A program made the position numbers and the translations under genes. Below, in pieces: positions 51,563-62,934 of a stretch of DNA of 64,000 bases. The notes under the pieces are model-generated. The model saw nothing but the letters and a program-made list of their open reading frames with translations. It was not told the origin of the DNA and did no database searches. The DNA comes from a virus (lineage: Duplodnaviria; Caudoviricetes): positions 30,600-94,599 of IMG/VR virus record IMGVR_UViG_3300021387_001034; one strand, 5' to 3'. Numbering within the stretch: the first letter of the stretch is position 1; each line of letters begins with the position of its first letter.

Positions 51563-51633
51563 ATTTACAGAAGGTAAGGAAAGGAACTTACCTTCTGTGA
51601 ATAATTTTTCATTACATAAGGAGGTAATGAAGT

Positions 51634-52012: not shown

Positions 52013-52101
52013 AGCCCGTAGGTGTGTGGCTGCACGGGGGCTCTCTAAAAGCCCGGCTTCTGAGGCGAACGGACTGGGTTCGATTCCCAGGCGGGCTGCC
52101 A
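52013..52101 (+). tRNA. amber-suppressor tRNA (anticodon CUA), atypical long variable region
   Basis: AGCCCGT/GCGGGCT-G-CCA acceptor; GGGCT-CTCTAAA-AGCCC; CTGGG-TTCGATT-CCCAG; 19-nt variable region. Confidence 0.85.
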
Positions 52102-55538: not shown

Positions 55539-55610
55539 ATGAAAAAACTCTTCTTTATTCCTATACTTATCCTTTTATTCCTCTTCCTAACAATGCGTAT
55601 CGCATACTGA
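55539..55610 (+). CDS. 23-aa hydrophobic peptide
   Basis: GGAG RBS; MKKLFFIPILILLFLFLTMRIAY. Confidence 0.45.
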   Translation: MKKLFFIPILILLFLFLTMRIAY

Positions 55611-55620
55611 GGTGATAACT

Positions 55621-55704
55621 ATGAGTTGGGGATTACTTATACTTGCTATATTTTTCATACTTGTAATTTTAAATGATTGTTATAATGGAACTCCGAAAAT
55701 CTAA
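55621..55704 (+). CDS. 27-aa hydrophobic peptide
   Basis: GAGGTG RBS; MSWGLLILAIFFILVILNDCYNGTPKI. Confidence 0.5.
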   Translation: MSWGLLILAIFFILVILNDCYNGTPKI

Positions 55705-55707
55705 TAT

Positions 55708-55736
55708 TTGACTTTTAATAAAAATTCTGTTATAAT
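55708..55736 (+). promoter_or_regulatory. sigma-A/70-type promoter
   Basis: TTGACT-N17-TATAAT with TG. Confidence 0.8.
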
Positions 55737-55863
55737 ATTAATGTACCAAGGGAGAAAAGCTACTTCCGGAAGTTACGGATGCCCGGTTAATCGTACGTAA
55801 GACTGGGGTCACGGCAGGATTGGTACAGAATACTTAGTGGGCCGTAACTATAAGTATTCAACA

Positions 55864-56119
55864 AACGGGCCGTAGGCTTAAAAGCAGCCATCGGTTAAAG
55901 AGTATCTCGCAACTAAGATTGTAGTGAGTAAGTTGGTAGAACCAACTAGCTAACAATCACATGTAGCCTCCCGCAGACCAAAGGCATGGTTAGGCGCTAC
56001 CGCTGTCGGTTAGAAGGGCTTCCTTCATAGTTAGTAATGACAATTCGTAGTACAATCGCGTTACTAGCTATCCGTCAAGTTGTACTACTGTGGAGATTTT
56101 GGCGTAGTAGCACACCGTT
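55864..56119 (+). ncRNA. 23S rRNA H43-H44 (uL11-binding GTPase-associated centre) mimic with large insert
   Basis: AACGG-GCCGTAGGCTTAAAAGCAGCCATCGGTTAAAGAGT [insert] GGCGTAGTAGCACA-CCGTT. Confidence 0.75.
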
Positions 56120-56123
56120 CTAT

Positions 56124-56199
56124 GCTCCTATCGTACAGCAGTCTAGTACAATCGCTTCGTAAGCGATAAACCTCGGCGCGCATCCGAGTAGGAGCTCCA
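56124..56199 (+). tRNA. trnT: tRNA-Thr(CGU), aberrant T-loop
   Basis: ATCGC-TTCGTAA-GCGAT; CCA encoded. Confidence 0.85.
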
Positions 56200-56223
56200 T
56201 TAAAAATTCTGAAAGGAAAAGTT

Positions 56224-56445
56224 ATGAAAAAGATTTATGTGGTTTTTATTGAGCGATATACTGATTGTGAATGCAGAAATTGGCGTATGGAAAGAGAATA
56301 TGTAAAAACGGATAATATTGCAGCATATATCGAATTAAAGAAAACACAGATTGAATCTCGTAGTTATTGGTGGATGGATTATTGTAAGGGCGCGGATGAC
56401 CGGCCCGATGTTAAAGCAGAAGAACTTGAGATTAAAGTATTTTAA
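56224..56445 (+). CDS. hypothetical protein
   Basis: AAAGGA RBS. Confidence 0.75.
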   Translation: MKKIYVVFIERYTDCECRNWRMEREYVKTDNIAAYIELKKTQIESRSYWWMDYCKGADDRPDVKAEELEIKVF

Positions 56446-57227: not shown

Positions 57228-57299
57228 CTCCGGCTAGTCTAAGGGAAAGAACACGTGGCTACGGACCACGAAATCGGCGTTCAAATCGTCGGCTGGAGA
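57228..57299 (+). tRNA. trnR: tRNA-Arg(ACG)
   Basis: CGTGG-CTACGGA-CCACG. Confidence 0.88.
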
Positions 57300-57341
57300 C
57301 ATCGCGCGAAGGCGCAAATTCATTTTGGAGGTACCTATATT

Positions 57342-57881
57342 ATGAATGAACCCAGACTAAAAATCCTACCACCTTGGACAATTGTGGTACGTAAGCTAGA
57401 AGCTCTATTTGACGGTGACCCACTAATTGCTTTCAATGTGGACTTCAGCGGCGAGCATCCTTCTGTCGTTCTCGCTTGTAGCAACGGAGATAAGGTTGCT
57501 GCTCTTCAGCAGATTCTACCAGAAGAAGTTGGCTTTGGTAATATTAAGCTAAAGGTAATGGTGGATGGAGTCCCAAGCAATCGCGCTTTTAAGAGCAAGG
57601 TTGAACTATTTGATACTGCTTTCAAGGGGAATCCTGCTTATGCATATTCTGTATGCCCTGCAGAAGAAGGTTATCAGTGGATTGGTACTACATATGTTGT
57701 ATTTAACAACTGCGTGGTACAGTTCGCCGCCGATAATCTAAATGATTGCCATGGCGTTATTAGTACTCTATATGAAACAATTGCTAGTGAGCTTCTAACT
57801 GGCCCTGCAACCGAAGGCGTCTTCTTCAATACGAATGTTGAGCGCGCAGGACTTGGAATGCCGCTTGGTGAATGGCCCTAA
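57342..57881 (+). CDS. conserved phage hypothetical protein (VVQFAADNLNDCHG)
   Basis: GGAGG RBS before MNEPRL; the ORF-track start lies inside a tRNA. Confidence 0.85.
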   Translation: MNEPRLKILPPWTIVVRKLEALFDGDPLIAFNVDFSGEHPSVVLACSNGDKVAALQQILPEEVGFGNIKLKVMVDGVPSNRAFKSKVELFDTAFKGNPAYAYSVCPAEEGYQWIGTTYVVFNNCVVQFAADNLNDCHGVISTLYETIASELLTGPATEGVFFNTNVERAGLGMPLGEWP

Positions 57882-62825: not shown

Positions 62826-62934
62826 TAGACCAAACAGCAATGTAATCTGCTCTTAGCAGAAGTAGTATAAGGGTAGTACATTTACCGTAAAAAGTAAAAG
62901 ATTGTGGTTCGAATCCGCACTTTAATTTGGTCTA
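62826..62934 (+). ncRNA. CAGCAA-clamp element 7 with non-permuted D/anticodon/T cargo
   Basis: TAGACCAAA/TTTGGTCTA + CAGCAA; TAGTATAAGGGTAGTAC, TTTAC/GTAAA, TGTGG-TTCGAAT-CCGCA. Confidence 0.8.

Follow-up and report, generated by a model that had tools for sequence, protein, structure and literature searches.

A free-standing mimic of the uL11/thiostrepton domain of 23S rRNA, the GTPase-associated centre (GAC), is the supported reading of positions 55864-56119 of a phage genome fragment, where it is set among tRNA genes. The window, that is, the whole 64-kb stretch of DNA that was analysed, comprises bases 30600-94599 of a 94.6-kb IMG/VR record which is ~52% complete. The likeness of this RNA, whose predicted length is ~260 nt, to the GAC exceeds chance in the two model comparisons described below, and it belongs to a large family of phage non-coding RNAs. 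The function that we propose, namely that the RNA folds as the GAC, becomes loaded with host uL11 and acts as a decoy off the ribosome, is one for which we consider the balance of probability to be about even.

Setting and anatomy of the RNA

The RNA is carried by a TAG-recoded phage. When TAG is read as sense, broken frames merge into long genes (two of the ORFs have 3269 and 2790 aa), and virion, tail and tail-fibre proteins are found in the window (PHROGs). The plus strand bears 26 tRNA genes at 52-63.5 kb of the window, one of them a CUA suppressor; the tRNA with this anticodon (52013-52101) has a long variable arm, and the genes of the phage need TAG as sense. For a tRNA-like gene at 62855-62928, the anticodon was called as four bases (taaa). 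The RNA island opens with a cow-rumen-4 RNA (Rfam, 67.7 bits; 51565-51630), which supports a rumen or gut origin. Relatives of the phage were collected by means of a 208-aa protein encoded at 57255-57881 and proved to be phages of 130-190 kb, some of which have terminal repeats. Among cultured phages, blastn of 50,697 records gave a sole match of 53 nt in the promoter region, which is irrelevant to the GAC mimic.

The split architecture is complete at 55864-56119, with all its parts on the plus strand: a closing stem, H43, the junction UUAAAGAGU, a stemmed insert after U1090, a UUU(G/A) linker and GCGUARYAGCAC with A1101. In the numbering of E. coli 23S rRNA, the closing, H42-like stem is formed by AACGG at 55864-55868 (1051-1055) and CCGTT at 56115-56119 (1104-1108); it has 5 bp, while 7-10 bp are usual in the family. 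The H43 equivalent (1056-1081) occupies 55869-55894 and consists of a C-C-G/C-G-G base, a GGC/GCC stem and the 1067 loop, with the A1067 equivalent at 55880; it is delimited by a local match to the Rfam LSU model and by alignment to the family model R1. Its base pairs, C-G and C-G, are a rare variant (8/127 cores). The junction (1082-1090, 55895-55903), read from family counts, holds the U1082-A1086 pair, A1084, A1085, G1087, A1088, G1089 and U1090. It is followed by an insert of 194 nt (55904-56097) that is predicted to fold on a closing stem of its own (55904-11/56089-97), and by the linker UUUG (56098-56101), which family counts mark as family-specific and which has no counterpart in rRNA. 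The 3′ part of H44 (1091-1103, 56102-56114), placed by the family alignment, comprises a GC/GC stem and the loop GUAGUA, with A1095 at 56106; A1101, which is U in rRNA, pairs with U1090. The nucleotides of the tertiary contacts (U1060, A1088, 1082:1086, C1072, G1071, A1067 and A1095) are all present. An earlier note on this DNA had recognised the domain from an H43-side string (55872-55903) and from GGCGTAGTAGCACA (56101-56114), enclosed by the pairing of AACGG with CCGTT, and these elements are located exactly where it had put them. The stem that it described at the base of the insert also exists, since ATCTCGCA (55904-11) is complementary to TGTGGAGAT (56089-97) apart from one bulged G. The position that it gave for the insert, at the H43/H44 junction, has to be corrected: the insert actually lies within the 5′ strand of H44, between U1090 (55903) and the UUUG linker that precedes G1091 (56102). 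The minimum free energy fold calculated with ViennaRNA pairs the 3′ part of H44 with the tail of the insert, so that H44 is not formed (z = -2.2 for the element); this fold and the short closing stem speak against the proposed reading. The ORFs that overlap the mimic are all short.

Upstream of the element there is a sigma-70-type promoter-like site (55708-55736, plus strand; TTGACT, a 17-nt spacer with TG, and TATAAT; 11/12 consensus matches), and tRNA-Thr(CGU) (56124-56199, plus strand, 49.4 bits) begins 4 nt past the closing stem, in agreement with the promoter at 55708 and the tRNA setting that had been noticed earlier. The promoter block (55701-55752) is kept and repeated in related phages. 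A separate structured RNA of ~120 nt (55744-55862, plus strand), recognised by folding and with no Rfam match, lies between the promoter and the mimic; its closing stem is GTACCAA/TTGGTAC and it has a hairpin at 55828-55859. In one relative (G053), the segment with promoter and 120-nt RNA (window 55703-55862) is 95% identical and no GAC element comes after it, the following segment (55863-56445, with the mimic, tRNA-Thr and a 73-aa ORF) being replaced by 76 nt. On this comparison the 120-nt RNA is an independent module and not a part of the mimic. The promoter-like site probably drives a unit composed of the 120-nt RNA, the GAC-mimic RNA and tRNA-Thr, and transcription of the window RNA is suggested both by this site and by the adjoining tRNA. 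According to the mechanism proposed here, the transcript from the 55708 site would contain the three RNAs, and tRNA processing would free the 3′ end of the mimic, which would be defined by the 5′ processing of tRNA-Thr (RNase P). The same arrangement is frequent in the family: among the 133 unique elements listed, 41% have a same-strand tRNA at 20 nt or less and 70% have one within 1.5 kb, and an opposite-strand tRNA is near none of them (0/133). This adjacency argues for co-transcription with the tRNAs and for release by tRNA processing.

The relation to 23S rRNA was assessed with two models. The Rfam model LSU_rRNA_bacteria gives a local match of 55868-55910 to model positions 1096-1145, with 16.7 bits and an E of 0.007 (701 bases searched). 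A match restricted to H43-H44 had been expected by the earlier note, and this was borne out for H43, where the only local match is found; H44 is unmatched. R1, a covariance model made from 42 IMG/VR phage elements with the window left out of the alignment, matches 55862-56124 over all positions (1-164 of 164) with 82.5 bits and E 3.8e-21, and this match is the sole one in the 64-kb window. Together, the LSU match and the R1 match confirm that both halves of the 23S GAC (H43 and H44, E. coli 1051-1108) are present, as had been claimed. A 23S rRNA gene (RF02541) is not what is found, the score being 16.7 bits vs a gathering threshold of 50 and the neighbouring rRNA domains being absent in 64 kb; the window has no rRNA gene at all, and the earlier note, too, had seen no other rRNA sequence nearby. 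At 55600-56300, no other Rfam family is matched at E up to 10, intron, ROOL, GOLLD and leader families included.

Conservation of the core across phages

IMG/VR was scanned with the exact H43/junction string (92 loci among the matches listed) and with a pattern of the 3′ half (at least 119 loci). Real rRNA is found at one of the 92 loci (L078). At nearly all loci of the first scan, AAAGAGU is followed by a variable insert, just as in the window, and nearly all own a 3′ half made of the linker, GCGUARYAGCAC, A and a sequence complementary to the 5′ flank. The two scans together yield at least 164 elements, at least 133 of them unique and with at least 129 distinct cores, which have one split architecture in common; the inserts of the elements listed from both scans measure 23-365 nt (median 145). 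The homologues with variable inserts that the earlier note proposed to look for do therefore exist, and their inserts are mutually unrelated across the family. In prokaryote assemblies (one genome per species), 35 of the 120 pattern matches are true elements, mostly on MAG contigs of phage-like size that look, for the most part, like binned phages; 86 of the 120 have no 5′ half, and ~277 chance matches are expected for the 18-nt pattern. A contig binned to Candidatus Limenecus has two GAC mimics ~1 kb apart, with inserts of 280 and 114 nt (L304:4000-5400), and a phage tRNA array that also bears a GAC mimic includes a tmRNA gene (L017:4045-4349).

The distribution among the closest relatives of the window phage is patchy. 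Those having a GAC element bear it at another place, and their inserts (88-96 nt) are unrelated; no GAC mimic was detected with R1 in G054, a complete close relative of 182 kb. Since G054 is without it, and because of the cassette-like indel in the window described above, the RNA is best regarded as an accessory cassette and not as a core part of TAG recoding.

The fold of the family is well documented by covariation. In an alignment of 42 members, window excluded (A1), 22 pairs were scored: 94.9% of the cells are paired, and both sides have changed in 16 of the 22 pairs. When the partners are slid by 1-3 columns as a control, pairing collapses to 36-57%. The covariation score is 0.617 vs 0.168 in shuffles and was reached by 0/500 of these. 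The closing stem covaries through all four Watson-Crick types; pairs 1057:1081 and 1058:1080 also covary (the latter as GC, UA, AU and CG), 1064:1074 is CG and AU in the family, and the tertiary pair 1082:1086 of the GAC covaries as well (UA 85, CG 25, AU 10). Invariance was counted for each half solely in elements retrieved via the other half (n=67 for the 5′ half, n=59 for the 3′ half). U1060, G1063, C1072, C1075, A1084, A1085 and G1087 to U1090 are invariant in 67/67, and G1091, G1093 and A1098 in 59/59. The linker has UUU in 58/59, followed by G/A in 59/59, and A1101, a U in rRNA, is present in 57/59; the UUU linker and A1101 are therefore family-specific near-invariants. Position 1067 is less strict, with G in 19/67 (28%), and loop positions 1096 and 1097 vary freely. 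This pattern of conservation fits selection for the fold and for the uL11 site.

A quite different explanation is that the RNA has no function of its own and represents a decaying rRNA fragment, a cis-acting leader of the r-protein type or a piece of intron-split rRNA. Its closest sequence is indeed 23S rRNA. Against this stand the hundreds of copies with compensatory changes, the features foreign to rRNA (A1101, the UUU linker and the closing stem) and the lack of any other rRNA nearby in the window, and we regard such an origin as very improbable. The family keeps its own fold and signature and therefore does not consist of recently captured pieces of rRNA. An rRNA pseudogene was rejected on the grounds of covariation, family-specific invariants and the missing rRNA neighbourhood. 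An r-protein leader was rejected since the downstream gene is tRNA-Thr, PF00298 is absent from 50 carriers and no leader family is matched. As for a self-splicing intron, no intron family is matched at E up to 10 over 55600-56300, and inserts of 23 nt cannot self-splice. ROOL, GOLLD and other described large phage ncRNAs were discarded because no Rfam match is obtained at E up to 10.

Variable inserts

The insert of the window RNA contains a 13-bp hairpin at 56026-56070 plus a possible pseudoknot between its loop and the tail (56047-55 with 56080-88), and folds slightly better than shuffles (z = -1.9). The pairings of the H-type pseudoknot that the earlier note described are indeed present in the sequence (12 bp with two G-U, and 9 perfect bp), and the predicted stems are thermodynamically plausible (-12.5 and -9.8 kcal/mol); comparative support is what they lack. 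A perfect complement of at least 9 bp arises in 5.2% of dinucleotide-shuffled inserts (chance P ~0.05), for which reason the pseudoknot is treated as unproven. No relatives of this insert were found among 131 other inserts (all-against-all blast) or in two metagenome scans, and a search of IMG/VR with the pattern of the insert boundary returned chance matches in coding sequences plus L038, with no insert relative. The view that a pseudoknotted insert is the defining feature of the RNA is weakened, as the inserts of the family are unrelated, are down to 23 nt or absent, and that of the window is without detectable relative. The best explanation is that the 194-nt insert is a lineage-specific expansion and not a conserved working part.

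Two members of the family are informative in this sense. At L065:1592-1655 there is a GAC mimic of ~60 nt with no insert, a C-G pair at 1090:1101 and no UUUG linker, situated 8 nt upstream of tRNA-Met in a complete 190-kb phage; in L023, the insert is reduced to a 23-nt hairpin. Because such members exist, the GAC core is taken as the functional unit.

The inserts fall into several classes. The largest, with 37 inserts (for example, L002, L005, L042, L063, L135, L174 and L181), has ACCCCGUAAC(U)GGUAAGG near the 3′ end and a closing stem that reads RGGRC...YCCY; this motif is a second conserved domain. Another class has GGGGAAGGACAAGUACAG in common. Three members with inserts of ~310 nt (L021, L125 and L183) contain a hairpin like that of the sarcin-ricin loop, with an AGUAC-GNRA-GGAA loop (AGUACGGGAGGAA, GGUACGAGAGGAA and AGUACAGAAGGAA), so that a single RNA would copy both halves of the GTPase docking site. 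Among the inserts, the motif is present in these three alone, and it is absent from that of the window.

With regard to the window insert, an identical 12-mer, TAGTACAATCGC, is found at 56048-56059 (loop and stem of the insert hairpin) and at 56144-56155 (D-arm/anticodon-stem junction of tRNA-Thr), and nowhere else in the 64 kb; the duplication may have been left by recombination, or the insert may imitate a fragment of the tRNA. CCAAAGGCATGGTTA (55978-55992) is a 14/15 match to a conserved 23S segment located ~55 nt upstream of the GAC, a marginal likeness that 13/300 shuffles equalled. The idea that inserts are copies of other rRNA regions was rejected, since blastn-short against real 23S (L078) gave scattered chance matches.

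The inserts might also be the part that works, with the uL11-stabilised GAC fold as a nuclease-resistant handle or scaffold for an aptamer, an antisense RNA or a protein-binding site. Inserts which are long, structured and lineage-specific, with several conserved classes, speak for this possibility, as do the somewhat better than shuffled fold of the window insert and the 12-nt string that it has in common with the adjacent tRNA-Thr. We consider it unlikely, however, in view of the members that have no insert or a 23-nt hairpin alone, of a core, UUU linker and A1101 far more conserved than any insert, and of a window insert without detectable relative.

Partners and proposed function

The partner of the RNA was sought first of all in the carriers themselves. 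Neither uL11 (PF00298) nor RelA/SpoT (PF04607) is encoded in the 50 carrier records examined, 23 of which are at least 90% complete and one of which is that of the window, and no protein cluster recurs beside the RNA in more than 7/133 loci. A GTP_EFTU domain occurs in 2/50 carrier records, both classed as provirus. With no phage-encoded partner found in the carriers, the partner is probably encoded by the host. Specific binding to the isolated GAC domain is known of a single protein, uL11, and from the conserved fold this protein is expected to be bound by the window RNA. The earlier note had also named uL10. L10(L12)4 needs conserved features of H42, and the H42-like closing stem of the mimic is a plain helix of free sequence; uL10 is weakened as a candidate for that reason, and its binding by the GAC mimic appears unlikely.

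The preferred reading, a uL11-loaded decoy, would operate as follows. Both ends of the RNA would fold into the tertiary structure of the GAC and would rebuild its 58 nt, with H43, H44 and the upper end of H42, as a domain closed upon itself, from which the 194-nt insert would exit via a three-way junction after U1090. The folded RNA would bind host uL11 and so give rise to an off-ribosome copy of the stalk base. This copy could act as a decoy or sponge which draws uL11 from ribosomes, and in consequence the activation of RelA and the RF1-dependent termination at UAG would be dampened. The N-domain of uL11 has been linked to RelA activation. [quoted passage not shown] The idea of stop-codon readthrough, put forward in the earlier note, would fit a TAG-recoded phage with a CUA tRNA and the known biology of uL11 and RF1. 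Readthrough is nonetheless not a general or obligatory role, because a complete close relative (G054) lives without the RNA. Moreover, titration would need expression at a level similar to that of tRNAs, because uL11 is abundant and mostly ribosome-bound.

An alternative outcome of the same folding would be that the RNA draws off host factors or toxins which recognise the docking site. A sarcin-ricin hairpin is superfluous for a pure uL11 sponge, and the RNA may therefore be aimed at a factor or toxin which recognises the docking site in its entirety. Withdrawal of uL11 and capture of site-recognising proteins are both plausible, and one does not exclude the other. The members which combine the GAC with the sarcin-ricin motif and the patchy, cassette-like distribution favour protein capture; a relaxed A1067 together with a strictly kept fold favours simple binding of uL11.

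Two further explanations dispense with uL11 as the target. In one of them, the RNA would be a docking platform that engages EF-G, RF3 or RelA directly. The 1067 and 1095 loops are present, with A at both positions in the window, and the long members with GAC and sarcin-ricin motifs would copy both halves of the factor site. However, A1067 is replaced by G in 28% of the elements sampled without bias at this position, a translational GTPase of their own is found only in the two provirus carriers out of 50 and RelA/SpoT in none, and sequestered elongation factors would presumably harm the translation of the phage too. A direct platform seems to us quite improbable.

In the other, the RNA, with or without uL11, would be a counter-defence decoy that soaks up a toxin which modifies or cleaves the factor-binding site of the ribosome, and the ribosomes would keep working. 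Phage tRNAs are known to counter tRNA-cutting defences. Toxins against exactly the GAC and the sarcin-ricin sites exist: Tre23 ADP-ribosylates the H44 nucleotides 1095-1098 of the GAC (PMC8661411), and VapC20 is reported to cleave the sarcin-ricin loop. The combination of the GAC with a sarcin-ricin-like hairpin in some members points in the same direction, as does the tRNA-array setting; the patchy presence in close relatives and the cassette-like indel are typical of anti-defence genes. On the other hand, a search of the literature on the sarcin-ricin loop and anti-phage defence showed no defence that acts on GAC or sarcin-ricin sites, the window member is without the sarcin-ricin motif, and positions 1096 and 1097, within the target of Tre23, vary freely in the family. 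We know of no anti-phage defence system that targets the GAC. This explanation is rather unlikely in our opinion.

Taken at its widest, the proposal is that many phage lineages make a ribonucleoprotein copy of the factor-docking site (the GAC with host uL11, sometimes with the sarcin-ricin loop) which disarms defence toxins or withdraws uL11. This generalisation is put forward tentatively, at somewhat less than even probability.

Relation to known RNAs and biological meaning

The phage RNA resembles the 23S GAC in its secondary structure, the H43 loop, the UUAAAGAGU junction, 1082:1086, U1060/A1088, the GC/GC stem of H44 and the hexaloop with A1095. It differs in that it stands alone on a closing stem of free sequence, while the GAC is embedded in a 2.9-kb rRNA; in that it has A1101 for U, the UUUG linker, an insert of 23-365 nt after U1090 and often G1067; and in that it is encoded by phages amid tRNA genes. 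The mRNA leaders of r-proteins mimic rRNA protein-binding sites (PMC10931766), and in this respect the uL1 site in the L11 operon leader and the L10(L12)4 leader are similar cases. These leaders, however, act in cis on their own mRNA and copy a local motif, whereas the phage RNA is proposed to act in trans, copies a whole tertiary domain and has no r-protein gene downstream or in 50 carriers. To our knowledge, rRNA mimicry has been seen solely in such cis-acting leaders. ROOL, GOLLD and the phage tRNA arrays that counter defences likewise belong to phage tRNA islands, lie on the same strand as the tRNAs and are probably processed together with them; the conserved core of the phage mimic, unlike that of ROOL or GOLLD, is an rRNA domain. 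6S RNA is a mimic of the open promoter. Phage pseudo-ToxI mimics an antitoxin (PMC3475682). The proposed logic is the same in both, an abundant RNA that imitates a nucleic-acid site and captures its binding protein, with the difference that the thing imitated here is a ribosomal functional centre. A search of the literature (full text) gave no description of the family and no earlier decoy of a ribosomal functional centre, and Rfam 15 has no family for the GAC mimic. Neither are we aware of any earlier decoy RNA that imitates such a centre.

Samples from the rumen, lakes, soil and the sea have yielded hundreds of phages in which the GAC mimic is conserved. If the proposed reading is true, viruses would possess a new class of RNA for host takeover or anti-defence, founded on the mimicry of an rRNA domain, and by copying an entire functional centre of the ribosome in a trans-acting RNA they would have a new route to interfere with the control of translation. 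Withdrawal of uL11 would dampen the stringent response; in phages that have recoded TAG, it would also weaken RF1, which would then lose to the CUA tRNA at amber codons. The family would offer a handle on the means by which large phages overcome the stringent response or defences aimed at translation, and on how RF1 is outcompeted by stop-codon-recoded phages. It would also indicate which changes a minimal, protein-binding form of the GAC can absorb (A1101, G1067 and an insert behind U1090), and it may provide synthetic biology with a candidate compact, natural uL11-binding RNA module.
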